A stretch of 26,823 bases of DNA from a virus (IMGVR_UViG_3300044261_000005:1-26823); one strand, 5' to 3'. Shown: positions 14,219-23,166, numbered from the stretch's first letter. Notes: generated from the sequence alone by a model not told the origin. Made by a program: numbers and translations.

Positions 14219-15646
14219 ATGCCCCAGAGCATCTATCAGGGACCGACCTACATCGGGGAGACGATCCAGACCACCCCGAACACCACCCCCGTGTGGCAGA
14301 AGTCCCCGGTGAAGAACTGGGTCAACGGACAGTGGATCTGGTTGAACGCTCCCATCGGGCCGGTGGACTTCGCACTGCGAAATCTGGCCTTCGACCGGGT
14401 GATGATCGAGATCTTCGACAGTCAGAACTTCGACCACGTCGGGGCCTACGAGGTCTACCTCAAGACCGGCGGTGGTGCGTTCGTCCGACGCTCCGATCTG
14501 GACATCCCAGACGACACCTCGACGGGGTGGATCACTGGACTGTCCGCGACCACCACCTACACAGTGCGGATCAAGGTCAACCTGTTCAGTGGGGGTCAGA
14601 CCCCCGACAGCGATCAGACCTTCACCACCCCAGCCAACCCTGCTCCGGCTGCTGTGATCGATCTGCGTACCCCCGCCCAGACCAACGCGTGGCTCGACCT
14701 CGCGTGGACCAATCCGGCAGGCTCATCGGCCACTTCCTACAACGTGTACTGGGGAAGGAACGGGGAGGGCCCGGCTGGGGTCGTCAACGTGGGCATGGCG
14801 ACCACGTACCGCGTGGCTGGGCTCAATGAGGACACGGCGTACTGGTACTTCGTCCGGGGGAAGAACGCCTCTGGTCTGGAGGGCCCTGACTCGAACCGTC
14901 TCCAGTGGGCCACCGGGTGGGGAGAGATACGACGTTTGGGCGGAGACGAGCAGATCCAATGGAAGCCTCGTGAGTGGGGATCCTACCGACCGGACATCCA
15001 GTGGAGGTGGGCTCGGGAGAACGGGATCGTGGACCGGAATCCACACCTGTATCAGGGGTACTGGCCGGGTGACAACTGGCACGGTGCCTCGAACCCGTCC
15101 TCGAACCTTGAAGCAGGGAAGACTCGACGCTACTGGGGGACCGTCGTCTACACCGCCTCCGATCTCCGTGACGCTCTGAACGCCAAGCATGGTGCTGGAG
15201 TCGGAGACAACATCGTCATGAGCATGGTGGCGCTCCGCCGCGCCTACCGGCACACGGATCCCGGCAACATCGCTGCTCAGGACATGGTCTGGCACCTGAC
15301 GAAGGCCAACCCGTTCAACAGCGGTCAGCCTCCCACCTACAGCAAGTACTCCGGAGGACCGGCAATGAAGGCTGGGGAGGTCAGGCAGTCCTACCCTCTT
15401 CCAGCCTCCTTCGGGACGAAGTTGCTCCGGGGATGGGACGAGGGAACTGCCGTCAACGGGATCGTCCTGCACCGGTCCGACAACGTCACCAACGGGTACG
15501 GAGCCGCAGGATACGGGCGCTGGTCCGGGCACCTCCTGAAGGACCCGAACACGTCTGGTACGTGGAGGTACAGTGACCTGACCCTGCTGATGGAGGGCTC
15601 ATGGAATGTCCTCGTTCGAGCCTATAGGGGGCCGTACCAGTGGTGA
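14219..15646 (+). CDS. Fibronectin type III-containing tail protein (candidate receptor-binding protein)
   Basis: Two FN3-like repeats (ITGLSATTTYTVRIK; LAWTNP..ATSYNVYW...YRVAGLNEDTAYWYFVRGKNASG) followed by a Trp/Gly-rich C-domain. Confidence 0.75.
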   Translation: MPQSIYQGPTYIGETIQTTPNTTPVWQKSPVKNWVNGQWIWLNAPIGPVDFALRNLAFDRVMIEIFDSQNFDHVGAYEVYLKTGGGAFVRRSDLDIPDDTSTGWITGLSATTTYTVRIKVNLFSGGQTPDSDQTFTTPANPAPAAVIDLRTPAQTNAWLDLAWTNPAGSSATSYNVYWGRNGEGPAGVVNVGMATTYRVAGLNEDTAYWYFVRGKNASGLEGPDSNRLQWATGWGEIRRLGGDEQIQWKPREWGSYRPDIQWRWARENGIVDRNPHLYQGYWPGDNWHGASNPSSNLEAGKTRRYWGTVVYTASDLRDALNAKHGAGVGDNIVMSMVALRRAYRHTDPGNIAAQDMVWHLTKANPFNSGQPPTYSKYSGGPAMKAGEVRQSYPLPASFGTKLLRGWDEGTAVNGIVLHRSDNVTNGYGAAGYGRWSGHLLKDPNTSGTWRYSDLTLLMEGSWNVLVRAYRGPYQW

Positions 15647-16707
15647 ATGTCCTAGCCGCCTCGACCGGAGCCATCGGCCTAGGGCCGTACGGCGACGAGT
15701 CTGAGCACACAGGCCCTCCCGCAGTCATCGTCTACACCCCGCCCTATCGCGACTTCATGGCGATGGATGCTCGGTCAATCATGCTGACCCTGCTCCCCCA
15801 GCACTACAACCTAATCCCGAACCCGTCGTTCCGCGCGAACCTCACCGGATGGACTGTCTGGGGCATGGGCACAGCCGTGGACGCTGCGGTGTCGTGGGTG
15901 GGCAAGTCCATCGTGTGCGACGGCGCGGGTCACCTCAAGAGAATGGTCTACACGGGGCCCTTGGTCGGAACTCAGGAGAACCAGTGGGATCCCAAGAGGG
16001 GTGGTCCTGAGGCCACGTTCAGCGTCTACGCGAAGGGAGTGGGTGAGGTCCGTCTGTTGATGTCCGCCTACTACTCCACGGATCAGACCGACCTGACTGC
16101 TGGACCTCAGTACCAGAACCTGCCCACTTCTGCCAGCCCTGCCACAGCGCCCTCAGGGGTCCCGGCGCTGCTCGACAGCACCACGGGTCGGGTCTGGACC
16201 CTCATCTCCCCAGCGCCCTCCATCGCCCCGTTCTACGAGGACATCGGGCGGGGACCCGCAATTGCCAGTGTCACTGGGGAGTGGACCACCATCGAAGATG
16301 ACGGGGACTGGCACCGCAACCTCATCCACACCTACGCCCGGATCTTGGAGGAGGAGGGGCAGATCTCCTTCGTGGGGGCGCGGTGGGTCGAGGTCACGGT
16401 CGAAGTTCGCAATGCGAATGGCCTGCGTCTGTCTGCCACCATGCTGGACCCGACGGAGTACCCGGTGTGCGCCTACTTCGATGGGGGCATGACAGAGAGC
16501 CTCGCGCTCGATGACTTCCTGTGGGAGGGGGTCACGGACAACAGCGCCAGTTACTACTACTTCGACCGGGTACTGCGGGCCAAGTGGCTGCACGAGAACA
16601 TCGGCTACGCCAAGCCAGCAGGTCGTCCGCACCAGATCTTCTTTGGCTCCTACTGGAGGCCCTACGTCGGGGCCACTGGAGAGACCAAGATTCTGGCGCT
16701 CACCTAG
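15643..16707 (+). CDS. Minor tail protein
   Basis: GTGA overlap (alternative start 15640); NLIPNPSF..NLTGW and YFDG...WEG motifs as in actinophage minor tail/carbohydrate-binding proteins. Confidence 0.65.
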   Translation: MNVLAASTGAIGLGPYGDESEHTGPPAVIVYTPPYRDFMAMDARSIMLTLLPQHYNLIPNPSFRANLTGWTVWGMGTAVDAAVSWVGKSIVCDGAGHLKRMVYTGPLVGTQENQWDPKRGGPEATFSVYAKGVGEVRLLMSAYYSTDQTDLTAGPQYQNLPTSASPATAPSGVPALLDSTTGRVWTLISPAPSIAPFYEDIGRGPAIASVTGEWTTIEDDGDWHRNLIHTYARILEEEGQISFVGARWVEVTVEVRNANGLRLSATMLDPTEYPVCAYFDGGMTESLALDDFLWEGVTDNSASYYYFDRVLRAKWLHENIGYAKPAGRPHQIFFGSYWRPYVGATGETKILALT

Positions 16708-16716
16708 ACTCCAAGG

Positions 16717-16983
16717 GTGCTGACTGACCTACTGATCGTTGCCCTGTCCGCGTCATTCGTCGTGTCCTTCGTGGACCGTTGGTTGAACTACCCGATGCTC
16801 CGTGGGGTGGTGGCTCTGCTGCTGTCCGTCGGGGGCGCTCTGCTCTTCGACTACTCGGGGTGGATGTTGGTTGTCGCTGCAACCGCGTCGGCCTTCATCG
16901 TCCTGATCCTGATCCTCGTCGGGGAGCGCCTCGCCACGCCTCCCCCACTGGTCGTGGATACCCGGCGCTCTAGGGGCCTCTAG
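16717..16983 (+). CDS. Small multi-pass membrane protein, holin-like
   Basis: 88 aa, about 3 hydrophobic segments and a basic C-terminus (RRSRGL); last gene of the structural operon. Confidence 0.55.
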   Translation: MLTDLLIVALSASFVVSFVDRWLNYPMLRGVVALLLSVGGALLFDYSGWMLVVAATASAFIVLILILVGERLATPPPLVVDTRRSRGL

Positions 16984-17051
16984 AGACCTCTGTTGGAAAG
17001 AGGCCAGATTCGGGCCCCACAACAAATAGAAGTTGGACTAAAAACCGGCCT

Positions 17052-17111
17052 CTGACCTGCGACGATGCGGAAGTGTCGCTAATAAGACTGATAACGGCAT
17101 CACTGACCTGC
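17052..17111. repeat. Two direct copies of CTGACCTGC
   Basis: Exact 9-mer at 17052-17060 and 17103-17111 in the intergenic region between modules. Confidence 0.5.
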
Positions 17112-17162
17112 ATATCCAACGAGGTCCCTGTGGTATGGGCGACGCACCGATACGACCCCTAC

Positions 17163-17194
17163 TTGACAGATACGGAGGGGGCGTGGTGTAGGGT
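17163..17194 (+). promoter_or_regulatory. Putative promoter of the replication operon
   Basis: Perfect TTGACA at 17163-17168. The nearest TANNNT (TAGGGT 17189-17194) gives an atypical 20-bp spacer. Confidence 0.45.
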
Positions 17195-17206
17195 GTGCCC
17201 AGCCCC

Positions 17207-17243
17207 AAAGAGAACCGCCCCCCGGTTTCCCGAAGGGCGGTTC
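17207..17243 (-). terminator. Minus-strand intrinsic terminator
   Basis: The minus strand reads GAACCGCCC-UU-CGG-GAAA-CCG-GG-GGGCGGUUC-UCUUU: a 14-bp stem with a GAAA tetraloop. The two U-G pairs are C/A mismatches on the plus strand. Confidence 0.7.
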
Positions 17244-17311
17244 AGAGACTGGGCCCGGTTGACGCCGGGTTCGCAGTCGAAACTGGAGAGTCCACCTCCA
17301 GTGCGATGTGC
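17207..17311 (-). ncRNA. Predicted ~105-nt counter-transcribed antisense RNA in the initiator leader
   Basis: Minus-strand -10 TACGAT (17323-17318) with a weak -35 TTCAAG 17 bp upstream, and a minus-strand terminator at 17243-17207. No credible minus-strand gene explains the terminator. Confidence 0.5.
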
Positions 17312-17355
17312 AAGAGCATCGTACAACAGGTGGCCTCTCCCTTGAAATGAGAGGC
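17282..17355 (+). promoter_or_regulatory. Two-state translational switch covering the initiator Shine-Dalgarno
   Basis: GCCTCTC (17333-17339) can pair with the SD GAGAGGC (17349-17355). Alternatively AGGTGGCCTCTCC (17328-17340) pairs 12/13 with GGAGAGTCCACCT (17285-17297). Confidence 0.6.
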
Positions 17356-17361
17356 AAGAGA

Positions 17362-18267
17362 TTGAGCCACGATTGGGTCGAGTACTCCATCAAGGAGTCT
17401 CCCTACACAGGTGCGACGTTTGCCGTCCACATGGTCCTCGCGCACCACGCTGACAAGAACACCGGCATGTGCTGGCCCAGTCAGGACCTCATTGCCGAAG
17501 AGGCCCGTGTCACTGTGCGGACCGTCAAGAGGTCCATCAAGCAGATGTGCGATGACGGCTATCTGGAGCGGTCCTACCGCCACCGTCAGCGTCGGTACCG
17601 TCTTCTCGTATCCAACGGAGAGGGGACATGGGTGTCCCTTGAGAAGGGACATGGGAGTCCCTTGAGAGGGGACATGGGTGTCCCGTCAGAAGGGACACGG
17701 GTGTCCCTTGCATATAGAACCGTCACTGAACCGTCAGTAGAACCGTCAGTGGAACCGAAAAGCACCGGACCCTCCGGGCCCGGCGAAGGAGTAGACGTGA
17801 AGATCGGGAACCTCAGCGAGGACGCGGACATGCCGGAAATGGATGTCACGCGGAATCCGAAGCGGAAGTTGCCGTTCAAGGCGGTCCCCCCGGTCGGCAC
17901 CAACGACTGGCTGCTCTACCGGTTCGAGCAGGAGCGGGCACGGGCTGGGGTCCGGACCGGGAGGTACAACAAGGGTCACCTGAACCACACCTTCCGGTCC
18001 CTTCGGGATGATGACGGGATGACCAACGCGGAGATCGAAGTCCTGATCCGCACCTTCTTCGTCCGTCACGGGGACGTGGCCCGGACCAAGGTCCGGGAGT
18101 GGGATCTCTCTTCGCTGTTCCGGCAGATGGTCCCCCAGTTGCAGATTCAGGCCAGAGACACGACCCGTGCCGTTCGAGACGGGCGCAAGACCACGACACA
18201 GAAGGGCAAGGAACTGAGCGGCGATCTTCTCGCTCGCTTCGGAGTATCGAAGGATGATGACGAATGA
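17362..18267 (+). CDS. Replication initiator with N-terminal winged HTH (HTH_36-like; functional analogue of lambda O)
   Basis: TTG start after GAGAGG; VLAHHADKNTGMCWPSQDLIAEEARVTVRTVKRSIKQMCDDGYL; internal iterons; followed by loader and DnaB genes. Confidence 0.85.
   Translation: MSHDWVEYSIKESPYTGATFAVHMVLAHHADKNTGMCWPSQDLIAEEARVTVRTVKRSIKQMCDDGYLERSYRHRQRRYRLLVSNGEGTWVSLEKGHGSPLRGDMGVPSEGTRVSLAYRTVTEPSVEPSVEPKSTGPSGPGEGVDVKIGNLSEDADMPEMDVTRNPKRKLPFKAVPPVGTNDWLLYRFEQERARAGVRTGRYNKGHLNHTFRSLRDDDGMTNAEIEVLIRTFFVRHGDVARTKVREWDLSSLFRQMVPQLQIQARDTTRAVRDGRKTTTQKGKELSGDLLARFGVSKDDDE
17620..17757. repeat. Putative replication origin: four 23-bp iterons plus GAACCGTCA repeats
   Basis: GGGACA(T/C)GGG(T/A)GTCCC at 17623, 17646, 17669 and 17692 (exact 23-bp period, each a dyad), then GAACCG(TCA) at 17717, 17728, 17740 and 17752. 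Confidence 0.85.
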
Positions 18268-18980
18268 CTGAGACCCAGAAGAAGAAGCGGTACTGGTACA
18301 GGCCGGATGGCTATGAGACCGATCACCTGATCGACTCCCTCTCCGACGAGGAACTTCTCGACCATATGGGCGTCCCGCTGAAGTACATCCGGCACGCGGT
18401 CGCGATGCAGAACGATCTGCCAGATGAGGTGGAGTCGTGGTTGGCGAACATGCCCTACGTCTACCGGCCCACCTTCGACCGGCTGGACAAGGACATGTGC
18501 GGCGTTGGTCTGGTCTTCTGGGGCGAGCCCGGAGGGCGGAAGACCACCGTGGCGGCTGCCACCTTGTTGCGGGCGGTCCGACTGAAGACCCCCAACACCG
18601 ACCCCACCGGACACAACTACACATGGCACGGGGCAGCGATGGGTCGCTTCGTGGACTGGCAGGAGGCCAGCGCGCTCTTTCGCAGTGCGAGTCGCAGCGA
18701 GGAGGACGAGATGGCGGCGGAGGAGGTCAAGAAGTTCATGAAGCCCAACGGACCGGCGGTCCACCGGGCGGACTTCCTCATTCTGGACGACATCAGCCGC
18801 GAGCGGGCCACTGAGTTCAACATCACGGAGTTGCAGCGGACCCTCCGCCGTCGCGGGGACAATGGCTACCCGACCATCCTCACCAGCAACCGCCACCCGG
18901 ACGATTGGGAAGAGGCGCATGGGGATGCCCTCTCCGGCTACATCCACCGCCAGTTCCTTCCAGTCGAGTTCGCGCTGTGA
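18264..18980 (+). CDS. DnaC/IstB-like AAA+ helicase loader
   Basis: Walker A variant GEPGGRKTT, Walker B FLILDD, RRRGDNGYPTILTSN; between initiator and DnaB. Confidence 0.85.
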   Translation: MTETQKKKRYWYRPDGYETDHLIDSLSDEELLDHMGVPLKYIRHAVAMQNDLPDEVESWLANMPYVYRPTFDRLDKDMCGVGLVFWGEPGGRKTTVAAATLLRAVRLKTPNTDPTGHNYTWHGAAMGRFVDWQEASALFRSASRSEEDEMAAEEVKKFMKPNGPAVHRADFLILDDISRERATEFNITELQRTLRRRGDNGYPTILTSNRHPDDWEEAHGDALSGYIHRQFLPVEFAL

Positions 18981-19390
18981 AGGACAACGACCTGAGCGCA
19001 GCGCCGACCCATCGCTACTGGGTCCTGTCGGACTTGGTCTTCACCAAGGTGGAGTCCAGTGAGGTGAAGAAGGCGGGGTGGTTCCGAAAGACGGAGACCA
19101 TCACCATCACCCGCGCCCCAGACCTGCGGGTCATGAGTGAACTGTGGCGGTGGAGTTCCCGGTACGGGGTCCGGCTCGAACTGATCTTCGTGGGTGAGGA
19201 CGACGCACCGGGACTCTGGGACTCACTGATCAAGGCAGCCAACCCGTTCAGCGACTTCATCGAGTTCGAGAACATCAACGACGTGGTGGGGCTGATGGAC
19301 TACCGACCTGACCTACTCGGAGTCATTGACGTTCCGGAACGCTCCGCCTACTACGGCGGTCGTGGACTGACCATGCAGGAGTTGAGGTAA
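18977..19390 (+). CDS. Hypothetical protein
   Basis: GTGA overlap; 137 aa (MKDNDLSAAP...YGGRGLTMQELR) with GC3-rich codons. Confidence 0.75.
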   Translation: MKDNDLSAAPTHRYWVLSDLVFTKVESSEVKKAGWFRKTETITITRAPDLRVMSELWRWSSRYGVRLELIFVGEDDAPGLWDSLIKAANPFSDFIEFENINDVVGLMDYRPDLLGVIDVPERSAYYGGRGLTMQELR

Positions 19391-19393
19391 CCC

Positions 19394-20644
19394 GTGGCAC
19401 TCTCCAACGAGAACCGGATCATCGCCAAGATCATCACCGAGCGGGACATCACGGCGGTCAGGGACCGGGGGATGACCTCCAAGTGGTTCTACGGCCCAGA
19501 GCATAAGGACGCGCTGGACTTCATCCTCAAGCACCACGAGAAGTACGGCGAGGTGCCGACCAAGGTGGCCTTCCAGAGCCACTTCGGAACGAAGTACAAG
19601 ATCGTCTCCATCCCAGAGGCGATGGACTACCTGCTCGACACCTGTGCCGAACACGCCCAGTGGATGCACGCCAAGGAGGTCTCGCTGAACGTCGCGGACG
19701 ACCTCAAGGACAGTCGCACCGCTGACGCCATCGCCAGCATGGAGGCGGGGCTCGCCAAGATCCGGTCGTTCACCCCCGTGGCGACCCATCTGGTGGACTC
19801 CATGGACAACGACCGACTGGAGGAGCGGTGGAAGGAGTACGACCTCAGGAAGACCTCCACCGGTCTGCTGGGGTACTCCACCGGGTTCCCCACGATTGAC
19901 GACGCGACGCTGGGTCTCCAGAACGGCCAGTTGGTCACGCTGCTGGCCCAGCAGAAGGTGGGCAAGACCAGCCTGTGCCTGACGATGGGCAACAACATCT
20001 ACGCCAACCACAAGGTGCCGATCCTGTTCGTCACCTTCGAGATGAGCGTTCGTGAGTTGGAGATGCGGCAGGAGTCACTGATGGCTCACATCAACTTCCG
20101 CCACCTCCAGAAGGGCGACCTGACTCCGCTGGAGGAGAAGCGCTACGACGAGTGGTTGGATATGGCCCAATCTGACTACGACTGGCCGTTCCACTTCATG
20201 GATGTCGCGTCTGGGGCGACCGTCAGTGCAGTAGAAGCCACTGCGGTCCGACATGACCCGGCAGTGATCTTCGTGGACGGCATCTACATGATGACCGACG
20301 AGGTCACGGGTGAGCGGAACTCGTGGGAGGCCATCACCAACATCACTCGTGCCCTGAAGCGGTTGGCGATGCAGTTGAACAAGCCCATCGTCATCAACTC
20401 GCAGGCACTGGCGAGCAAGTCCAAGGGCACGCGACTGTCCACCTCCAGTGCTGGCTACTCGTCGTCCTTCGGGCAGGATTCAGACGTGATCATGGGTCTG
20501 GAGCGGATCCAACCGGGCAAGGGAGAGGACGAGTCCCTGTACGCCTACGAGCGCATCCTGAGGATCCTCGACTCCCGCAACTCCGGGACGGCTCAGGCCG
20601 ATCTCATCTTCGACTACGACACCGGCACCATCGAGGAGACCTGA
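19394..20644 (+). CDS. dnaB: DnaB-like replicative helicase
   Basis: GYSTGFPTIDDATLGLQNGQL, Walker A AQQKVGKT, FVTFEMS, IFVDGIYMM, LKRLAMQLNKPIVINSQ, GQDSDVIMGL. Confidence 0.93.
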   Translation: MALSNENRIIAKIITERDITAVRDRGMTSKWFYGPEHKDALDFILKHHEKYGEVPTKVAFQSHFGTKYKIVSIPEAMDYLLDTCAEHAQWMHAKEVSLNVADDLKDSRTADAIASMEAGLAKIRSFTPVATHLVDSMDNDRLEERWKEYDLRKTSTGLLGYSTGFPTIDDATLGLQNGQLVTLLAQQKVGKTSLCLTMGNNIYANHKVPILFVTFEMSVRELEMRQESLMAHINFRHLQKGDLTPLEEKRYDEWLDMAQSDYDWPFHFMDVASGATVSAVEATAVRHDPAVIFVDGIYMMTDEVTGERNSWEAITNITRALKRLAMQLNKPIVINSQALASKSKGTRLSTSSAGYSSSFGQDSDVIMGLERIQPGKGEDESLYAYERILRILDSRNSGTAQADLIFDYDTGTIEET

Positions 20645-22453: not shown

Positions 22454-22719
22454 GCCCGTACTGGTCATGGGTACTGACCGCTGTCGGTGTCACCGGCCTG
22501 TACTTCGCTGGTCAGAAGAAGCCGTGGGCATGGCTGATCGGTCTGGGGGCTCAGGTGCTCTGGCTGGCCTACGCCATCGCTACGGAGCAGTGGGGCTTCA
22601 TCGTTTCGGCGGGAGCCTACGGGACTATCTACTTGAAGAACCATCTCGCTTGGTGGCGCGATAGGCCCGAGACGCTTCCAGTTGGCACTCGCGGCAGCGA
22701 CGGCCCCCATGTGCATTGA
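22450..22719 (+). CDS. Small PnuC-like membrane protein (3 TM)
   Basis: WSWVLTAVGVTGLYFAGQKKPWAWLIGLGAQVLWLAYAIATEQWGF..YG..Y..N...W resembles the half-size PnuC-like proteins of actinophages. Confidence 0.7.
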   Translation: MSPYWSWVLTAVGVTGLYFAGQKKPWAWLIGLGAQVLWLAYAIATEQWGFIVSAGAYGTIYLKNHLAWWRDRPETLPVGTRGSDGPHVH

Positions 22720-23166
22720 CGTAGACGTTGTCGTCAGTCATCGGGTGCCCCTGCTTGCAGTGAGTCCACGGGAGACTGCGAGGCCAACGGTTGGCGCGCT
22801 TGATTTCGTACTCGTCCAGTCGGGCCGTGAACGCGGACCTCTTGTCGCTGGACAGCCACGGCCACAGGGCGTCACGGACGATGATCACTTTCGCGTACGC
22901 GTTGATCTGCAACTGGTAGCGGGGCTTTCGGTTGGGTATGTAGATCGGTCCTCGGATGGCGGCATCTACATCGACGGCGGCGCAGAATCGCAGCAACGTG
23001 TCGGGGATGCCGTCCACCCCGGCTTGTGTGATGGAGACGGCAGGCACGCCGACACGTCCGTTCTTGGCGACAGTTCGCGCGACAGATCCTTCACCATCGA
23101 AGAATCCAGCAGCCCAAGCACGCTCAGTATCGGGGATCATTGCATGAGACTACTACTGCACTACGG
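22617..23166 (-). mobile_element. Homing-endonuclease cassette flanked by CTACGG direct repeats
   Basis: CTACGG at 22617-22622 and 23161-23166. Deleting the 544 bp between them rejoins the PnuC-like ORF in frame to an alternative C-terminus. Confidence 0.7.
22625..23140 (-). CDS. Single-motif LAGLIDADG endonuclease with C-terminal HCxxGH...CxxC domain
   Basis: AWAAGFFDGEGSV; VSITQ; LWPWLSSDKR; C-terminal THCKQGHPMTDDNVYV...RRCREC. The only credible minus-strand gene in the window. Confidence 0.88.
   Translation of the reverse strand: MIPDTERAWAAGFFDGEGSVARTVAKNGRVGVPAVSITQAGVDGIPDTLLRFCAAVDVDAAIRGPIYIPNRKPRYQLQINAYAKVIIVRDALWPWLSSDKRSAFTARLDEYEIKRANRWPRSLPWTHCKQGHPMTDDNVYVNAHGGRRCRECQLEASRAYRATKRDGSSSR

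Follow-up and report, generated by a model that had tools for sequence, protein, structure and literature searches.

A putative antisense-RNA translational attenuator in the leader of a lambda-O-like replication initiator gene of an actinobacterial myovirus

The DNA analysed here, referred to below as the window, is a 26.8-kb virus record with a G+C content of 62.6%. Pfam and PHROG matches identified a contractile-tail module (sheath, tube and baseplate), followed on the same strand by a replication module. The latter includes a gene for a 301-residue initiator, in which the HTH_36 domain is located N-terminally and whose PHROG matches are to replication initiation or O-like proteins (E 3e-11 to 1e-7). 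Within this gene are four 23-nt direct repeats, which by analogy with lambda O and the Rep of pSK41 are likely to be origin iterons. Every repeat also contains an inverted repeat of the GGGACA..TGTCCC type, and the array can be read as inverted repeats as well. Genes for a helicase loader and a DnaB-like helicase lie downstream (Table 1). A previous reading of the window, made from the sequence alone (the sequence-only reading), had proposed a lambda-O-like initiator-loader-DnaB operon, and the N-terminal HTH, the internal direct repeats and the two downstream genes bear this out.

The initiator had no match in cultured phages, and about 50 loader homologues and more than 20 close initiator homologues exist. 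The closest cultured DnaB sequences are those of Streptomyces phages, at about 29% identity, and one relative carries WhiB, PolA and a RecA-like gene. On these two grounds the host is presumed to be actinobacterial. A scan of a genome collection with the loader alignment returned seven matches, all weak (E 3e-4 to 1e-3, 32-50% over short stretches) and not true relatives, and therefore provided no host or prophage. Close relatives of 15-23 kb have been rated 15-24% complete, which suggests a genome of near 100 kb, the window being, like these relatives, a fragment. Several other features of the replication module were noted. An HNH endonuclease gene lies on the minus strand inside it (22625-23140), and L002, a close relative, has no match over part of this area. 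In a further relative, L007 (L007:3411-5678), the DnaB gene is interrupted by some 335 additional codons that match Hint and LAGLIDADG, an intein placed between residues 191 and 192 of the window DnaB. The initiators themselves look mosaic when that of the window is compared with P0002, P0003, P0004, L007 and L171. In P0002 the N-terminal HTH and repeat region is nearly identical to that of the window and the sequence beyond has diverged; others agree with one another in the C-terminal part and differ in their HTH domains and repeats. Judging from these comparisons, origin specificity seems to have been swapped behind a constant leader.

Table 1. Mapped and predicted elements of the initiator leader and adjoining replication genes (window coordinates)
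Feature	Position	Strand	Basis
Predicted sense promoter block, -10 TAGGGT (17189-17194)	17183..17197	+	Invariant at 14/15 positions among 4 leaders
HP1, 14-bp GAAA-capped hairpin with TTCTCTTT tail; predicted antisense terminator	17204..17243	-	Paired in 3 lineages
Predicted antisense RNA of ~105 nt with three hairpins (97-105 nt in relatives)	17207..17311	-	Inferred from -10 box and terminator
HP2, conserved stem with variable upper stem and loop; candidate recognition loop	17247..17278	+	Relatives
HP3 (ACTGGAG/CTCCAGT), invariant 7-bp stem with variable 6-7-nt loop	17282..17302	either strand equally	4 leaders
Anti-anti-SD, 5' strand of predicted ON helix (partner 17328-17340)	17285..17297	+	12/13 pairs, one T.C mismatch
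Inner 9-bp stem of ON fold (17301-09/17316-24), overlapping antisense -10	17301..17324	+	Folding
Predicted antisense -10 TACGAT (TAGGAT in L007)	17318..17323	-	Aligned TAnGAT in 4/4 leaders
SD hairpin, anti-SD GCCTCTC (17333-39) with SD GAGAGGC (17349-55)	17333..17355	+	Kept in relatives
Lambda-O-like replication initiator, 301 aa from TTG	17362..18267	+	Pfam HTH_36, E 1.7e-11
Four 23-nt direct repeats inside initiator gene, spacing 23	17618..17709	+	Repeat family D1
DnaC-like helicase loader, start overlapping initiator stop	18264..18980	+	phrog_50, E 7e-15
DnaB-like helicase	19394..20644	+	Pfam DnaB_C, E 1.4e-29

The region of about 160 bases preceding the initiator start codon (TTG, 17362-64) was then mapped. 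TAnnnT is the -10 pattern of Actinobacteria. TAGGGT at 17189, which the sequence-only reading had missed, is the only plus-strand TAnnnT within 16900-17400, and a sense RNA starting near 17201 is predicted from it. A sigma-70 promoter scan found no promoter, as expected for boxes of the TAnnnT type. No conserved -35 was seen for either the sense or the antisense -10 box, and nothing else in the window closely resembles the sense promoter block. TTGACA at 17163-68 was considered as the sense -35 and rejected, as its spacer to the -10 is 20 nt and it is not kept in relatives. Upstream of the promoter, the intergenic 9-base word CTGACCTGC occurs twice (17052-17060 and 17102-17110) and is a possible operator. 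The motifs that had been picked out earlier (ACTGGAG/CTCCAGT, GCCTCTC/GAGAGGC, the 12/13 ON pairing, the hairpin at 17247-78 and TACGAT) were all found in place. The SD stem is followed by AAGAGA and then the TTG, with no U run, and no plus-strand terminator was called within 15500-19000. Compared with 200 dinucleotide shuffles, the sense leader of the window folded with a z score of -6.1 and its predicted antisense RNA with one of -4.7; over the three lineages described below the ranges were -4.8 to -6.1 and -4.7 to -6.2, respectively.

Pattern scans of a viral collection gave 4, 9, 5 and 70 loci, and the leader was present only in the same four contigs, L001 (identical), L002 (96% identical overall), L007 and L171. 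A tandem repeat of about 99 nt on an unrelated contig (L180:2001-2122) matched one search pattern twice. A further variant of the leader, X1, came from a sequencing run kept as contigs, probably of DNA, and is a partial contig with a depth of 3.3. The sample consequently consists of three independent full lineages and one partial, low-depth contig. The leaders of L007 and L171 are 80% and 75% identical to that of the window, against 51-52% for shuffles. The first 300 coding bases of the initiator are 56% identical, the 150 bases upstream of the leader are 49% (L007) and 58% (L171) identical, and the L007 initiator protein is 32% identical to that of the window. The stems could be compared across L002, L007 and L171 and proved to be conserved in these homologous leaders. 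RNAalifold, run on an automatic alignment, returned HP3, the inner stem and the SD stem, with double changes at 0 of 17 pairs. Outside these contigs, no match to the leader was obtained in cultured phages or plasmids (including a plasmid BLAST search), a leader model found nothing in four complete distant genomes, and a loose pattern scan of 7 of 64 parts of a metagenome collection gave at least 118 loci, none of which fitted the leader profile (best E 0.27). One metagenome candidate, L115, lies within a coding gene. Rfam 15 gave no match at the gathering score for the window and seven related loci; below it were three chance-level matches (E 0.56-9.8), none to the ctRNA, OOP or C4/CI RNA families. 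The region of about 160 bases is a real, conserved and folded control element.

We then examined the minus strand. The sequence-only reading had described a 14-bp GAAA-capped terminator fully paired on the minus strand only, and this held in all three lineages. With arms at 17243-17230 and 17225-17212, HP1 was paired on that strand in all 42 cells. Variation is confined to four pairs, which show only switches between C-G and U-G, without any pair altered on both sides; on the sense strand these swaps are mismatches, because U-G there reads C.A. The calculated energies were -27.7 to -28.5 kcal/mol on the minus strand and -18.4 to -21.2 kcal/mol on the sense strand among the lineages (-27.9 vs -21.2 kcal/mol in the window). 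A column-shuffle control for HP1 was uninformative, as its result (500/500) cannot discriminate, and the U-tail of the hairpin is weak in L171. The predicted antisense -10 box is unchanged in X1, and its third base differs in L007 despite the loss of a stem pair. Its first base, 17323, marks the only minus-strand TAnnnT in the 1.4 kb from 16900 to 18300, the background on this strand being 0.63 per kb. Conservation of the box could partly be explained by pairing, since it lies in a stem. The predicted sense and antisense boxes face each other over a predicted overlap of 97-105 nt. The relatives support the counter-transcribed RNA of this length proposed earlier, through the conserved -10 box and the terminator-like hairpin, and from these comparisons we consider it probable that a minus-strand RNA exists, a point common to the reading that we favour and two of its rivals. 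The predicted span of this RNA lies upstream of the RBS (17349-64), which it leaves uncovered, and the same is true in the four leaders.

The pairing around the RBS was examined by folding calculations. The SD hairpin, conserved as had been claimed, is kept in L007 with another loop and has both of its strands changed together in L171 (CTCCTC/GAGGAG). When the region covered by the antisense RNA was held unavailable, the SD/anti-SD stem formed in all four leaders. When the RBS was held open, a three-part ON helix was the best fold, again in four of four, which supports an alternative upstream partner for the anti-SD. The best fold of the window leader is this ON form extended by the inner 9-bp stem, which had been overlooked; it stacks within the ON helix and contains the antisense -10 hexamer. 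The ON helix had probabilities without antisense RNA of 1.00 in the window and 0.99 in L002. The corresponding values were 0.02-0.03 in L171 and, in L007, 0.00 at full length and 0.76 in the 3' sub-domain only. Equilibrium folding gives no clean switch in L007 and L171, because in both full-length leaders the SD hairpin is already dominant without antisense RNA (probability 1.00). The expected contrast between folds with and without the antisense RNA was consequently obtained in part: masking produced the SD stem in every leader, but the free leader adopted the ON form only in the window, L002 and the 3' part of L007. The claim that the ON state frees the SD also needs adjustment. The 12/13 helix is indeed dominant in the window, but bases 17353-55 of the SD stay mostly paired in that fold, so that the SD is partly free, and L171 is not in the ON state. 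Owing to two changes, L002 has an additional 4-bp hairpin, which extends to the first bases of the SD in the ON fold as well.

Masking raised the cost of opening positions -16 to +3 by 2.6, 3.4, 3.0 and 5.1 kcal/mol in the four leaders, and that of the SD alone by just 2.0, 1.1, 1.0 and 2.0 kcal/mol. Random HP3 loops matched the natural loop in pairing with the anti-SD segment in 0.9%, 4.3% and 19% of draws; the tests on the window and L007 are not independent of each other, as the two share this segment. Duplexes across lineages displayed no cognate preference, the 5' strand of L171 giving -16.0 with the window segment and -14.8 with its own. The hairpin at 17282-17302 (HP3) had been assigned to the OFF state. 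This is incompatible with full antisense pairing over it: an antisense RNA, if fully paired, covers HP3, which places the hairpin outside the repressed state. HP3 may just as well serve as a transient target, or form the hairpin at the 5' end of the antisense RNA.

These results favour the view that the leader is a translational attenuator of the pSK41 type, acting in an actinobacterial myovirus on a lambda-O-like initiator whose gene contains the origin, a reading to which we assign a probability of roughly 60%. Two predicted convergent promoters would flank the folded leader. In the folding model, sense RNA starting at about 17201 would refold HP3 into the ON helix (17285-97 with 17328-40) and thereby occupy the anti-SD, and masking of 17207-17311 would restore the SD hairpin, making the RBS dearer to open by 2.6-5.1 kcal/mol. 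By pairing with the leader, an antisense RNA of about 100 bases would make the anti-SD available to fold onto the RBS and close it, and less initiator would be made. First contact may occur via the variable loops of HP2 and HP3. In this way origin firing would come under a negative feedback whose strength follows the number of genome copies.

A parallel layout, which also speaks for a minus-strand RNA, was found in a distant but syntenic clade, with DnaB proteins 31-41% identical to that of the window. Among 39 loci (L008-L046), 25 matched a pattern for a hairpin before the initiator and the 14 without a match were left out. The 25 represent 16 distinct leaders, which are mutually related and share no sequence relationship with the leader of the window. 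All 16 have a minus-strand TAnnnT 44-45 nt past a terminator-like hairpin, in six different hexamers, so that the T, A and T of the box are kept and the middle is free. In 15 of the 16, a frame of 13-15 codons ends in a stop codon overlapping the initiator start codon. The elements of the distant leader, in the approximately 150 nt before the initiator, are a long bidirectional hairpin, a direct repeat, the minus-strand -10 box and the coupled frame.

That the region is simply coding, from 17308 or 17347, or that its pairings are due to chance, is extremely improbable and largely refuted. The frame is open from 17308, and in P0002 the gene has been called from the ATG equivalent to 17347. However, ATG 17347 is lost in L002, L007 and L171, and as for GTG 17308, L171 lacks it and L007 has it in another frame, so that neither of the upstream starts whose use would have made the region coding is kept across relatives. 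The TTG-AGC start is aligned in four of four leaders, in agreement with the earlier choice of TTG as the initiator start, and the leader lengths (161, 161, 163 and 156) differ by numbers that are not multiples of three. With the loss of ATG 17347, these points indicate that the leader is not an extension of the gene, and the folding z scores of -4.7 to -6.2 speak against chance pairing. A structured leader acting only in cis, opened by protein, temperature or folding kinetics, is a more serious alternative, although we regard it as quite unlikely. In such a case the minus-strand hairpin would be an insulating terminator or a single-stranded DNA signal, and there would be no regulatory antisense RNA. 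Consistent with this, the -10 hexamer lies within a conserved sense-strand stem, L192 has an almost identical GAAA hairpin behind the end of an unrelated gene, suggesting that the hairpin type is generic, and a divergent gene lies behind the hairpin in L007 and L171. On the other hand, the third base of the hexamer varies at the cost of a pair, the hexamer is unique in 1.4 kb, and the distant clade has retained the three fixed bases of such a box around a free middle. A terminator at this place also presupposes a transcript that runs into it, and within 16900-18300 the minus strand offers no second TAnnnT that could supply one.

Two further alternatives accept an antisense RNA and differ in how it would act. 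One is that it works mainly through duplex-triggered mRNA decay or through interference between the convergent promoters, similar to lambda OOP and pO, with SD refolding secondary. The evidence for a minus-strand unit fits this equally well, L171 and full-length L007 have a closed SD hairpin even when no antisense RNA is present, and OOP itself, at 77 nt, is a self-terminating antisense RNA situated immediately before lambda O (PMC3349717). We nevertheless consider this unlikely, as all four leaders maintain a conserved anti-SD partner inside the region covered by the antisense RNA, which a decay-only model does not need, and the overlap contains no cII-like gene. The other invokes coupling to a leader peptide, as in R1 tap or ColIb-P9 repY: translation starting at ATG 17306 would open the SD hairpin and restart at TTG, and the antisense RNA would block the upstream start. 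ATG 17306 is invariant in the four leaders. The frame ends at -11 (window), +4 (L002) and -4 (L171) relative to TTG, and is in frame with the initiator in L007. The distant clade has its 13-15-codon leader with an overlapping stop in 15 of 16, and the start context NTGAGC is common to both groups. Neither the frame, the length nor the peptide is conserved, however, and no SD is present 5-13 nt before ATG 17306. By a rough estimate, chance would place the end of such a frame near the RBS in nearly one case out of two for each lineage. We regard this coupling as very unlikely at the present locus.

If an antisense RNA recognizes the leader through its loops, the variation among relatives becomes relevant. 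The HP3 stem is identical at seven of seven pairs in the four leaders, and its loop differs in every lineage. In HP2, the upper stem is entirely replaced yet still paired in L171, and G-U pairs have become A-U in L007. In X1, read by hand, HP2 pair 17258-17265 is swapped on both sides in a compensatory manner; all three changes near HP3 are in the loop, and the ON helix retains 11 of 13 pairs. Nine of the 15 listed differences in X1 fall within 36 of 332 nt, namely the top of HP2 and the loop of HP3 (P about 0.002, with a rough correction for the window having been picked after seeing the data). Taking into account that incompatibility in the I-complex plasmids depends on bases of the loop and upper stem, the loop changes in this one low-depth contig suggest a role in specificity. 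The YUNR motif reported in the HP2 loop could be read in the region of this loop in the window, L007 and L171, and not clearly in X1. In the predicted fold of the window, however, U17259 pairs with G17264, which leaves the Y outside the loop, and by a rough estimate about one in six six-base loops would contain a YUNR by chance. A wider proposal is that the HP2 and HP3 loops form a specificity code and that the leader is an antisense copy-number sensor on a lambda-like origin, defining exclusion groups among actinobacterial myoviruses of about 100 kb, with the layout rebuilt in a sister clade out of unrelated sequence. This is speculative, and we consider it rather doubtful.

In plasmids, the regulation of initiator translation by antisense RNA has been studied extensively. 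In the I-complex plasmids, an upstream loop pairs next to the anti-SD in a pseudoknot that favours translation, the antisense RNA competes with this pairing, and a leader peptide takes part. In IncK, IncB/O and ColIb-P9 of this group, bases of the loop and upper stem set incompatibility (PMC10724649). The differences here likewise fall in loop and upper stem, but there is no conserved leader peptide, the ON pairing can be extended to a helix of 12-13 bp, and there is no sequence similarity. The present leader also differs from R1 CopA/tap and ColIb-P9 repY in having no conserved leader ORF with its own SD, although the distant clade has a coupled leader ORF in 15 of 16. The closest parallel in mechanism is pSK41. 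PMC5703833 describes its RNAI, about 83 nt in length, as counter-transcribed, as complementary to the rep leader well upstream of the initiation region and as proposed to induce an RBS-sequestering stem-loop without terminating transcription, and places the four repeats of the pSK41 origin inside the rep gene. Here too the predicted antisense target is upstream of the RBS and four repeats lie within the initiator gene. According to the same source, plasmid pPR9 joins a pSK41-type control region to a phage-like PF13730 HTH, and the window initiator matches the same Pfam family. Unlike in pSK41, the predicted RNA has three hairpins, the host group is actinobacterial, plasmid BLAST and Rfam gave no sequence similarity, and the element resides in a myovirus of about 100 kb with its own loader, DnaB, primase and PolA. 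In pT181, a pre-emptor sequence competes for the 5' arm of an RBS-containing stem, and the RNAI of pT181 and RNAIII of pIP501 act by transcription termination (both in PMC5703833). The competition for the 5' arm is similar here, whereas the SD hairpin has no U tail before the start codon. Control of rep by a ctRNA is present in Actinobacteria in Corynebacterium pGA1, whose ctRNA overlaps the rep start (PMC9592669); the RNA predicted here ends 50 nt short of the initiator start, and had no Rfam match.

Among phages, the closest case in the literature that we searched is lambda OOP, which targets cII. This 77-nt RNA is transcribed opposite to the operon and acts on cII, the gene whose 3' end it overlaps (PMC3349717). 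As in the pO/OOP/tO unit, a short antisense RNA with its own terminator is predicted directly ahead of an O-type initiator gene holding iterons. The overlap here is instead a non-coding leader with its own predicted promoter and SD/anti-SD switch. No antisense control of the origin-binding initiator of a tailed actinobacterial phage was found in this literature, with most subscription papers outside its scope. The mechanism is of a known kind and the element is uncatalogued.

It had been suggested that such control hints at an extrachromosomal (phage-plasmid or carrier) state. A scan for ParA-type partition genes and for integrase genes did not favour this. No ParA of the AAA_31 type (PF13614) was found in 10 records, including five complete distant genomes, and a tyrosine recombinase (PF00589) is present in four of those five genomes. 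In one locus, L194 (G005), the tyrosine recombinase is adjoined by a frame that, read by eye, looks similar to the C-terminal portion of a large serine recombinase. A lone ParB-like gene is divergent to the L007 leader, with no ParA nearby; its Pfam score is 23.4 bits (cut-off 26.3) and its PHROG match has E 2e-13. In L172 (1817-4188, minus strand), from the genome of L007, this gene and an HTH gene occupy, in divergent orientation, the interval from the last tail gene to the leader. A different and unrelated gene, also divergent, is present at this site in L171, and none in the window. The interval has the appearance of a hotspot for insertions. There are actinophage prophages that live extrachromosomally and rely on parABS (PMC7157519), and BRock, a distant cultured relative, has been described as virulent (PMC7453282). 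Antisense control of an initiator needs no plasmid state, in a temperate or a lytic phage.

If the attenuator is real, a large phage with its own replisome would limit origin firing, or exclude its kin, without a protein repressor. Should the more speculative loop code also hold, the RNA of a resident genome would silence the initiator of an incoming phage with matching loops, a repressor-independent exclusion based on RNA. A compact switch of 160 nt with natural loop variants could also serve as a source of orthogonal regulators in Actinobacteria.
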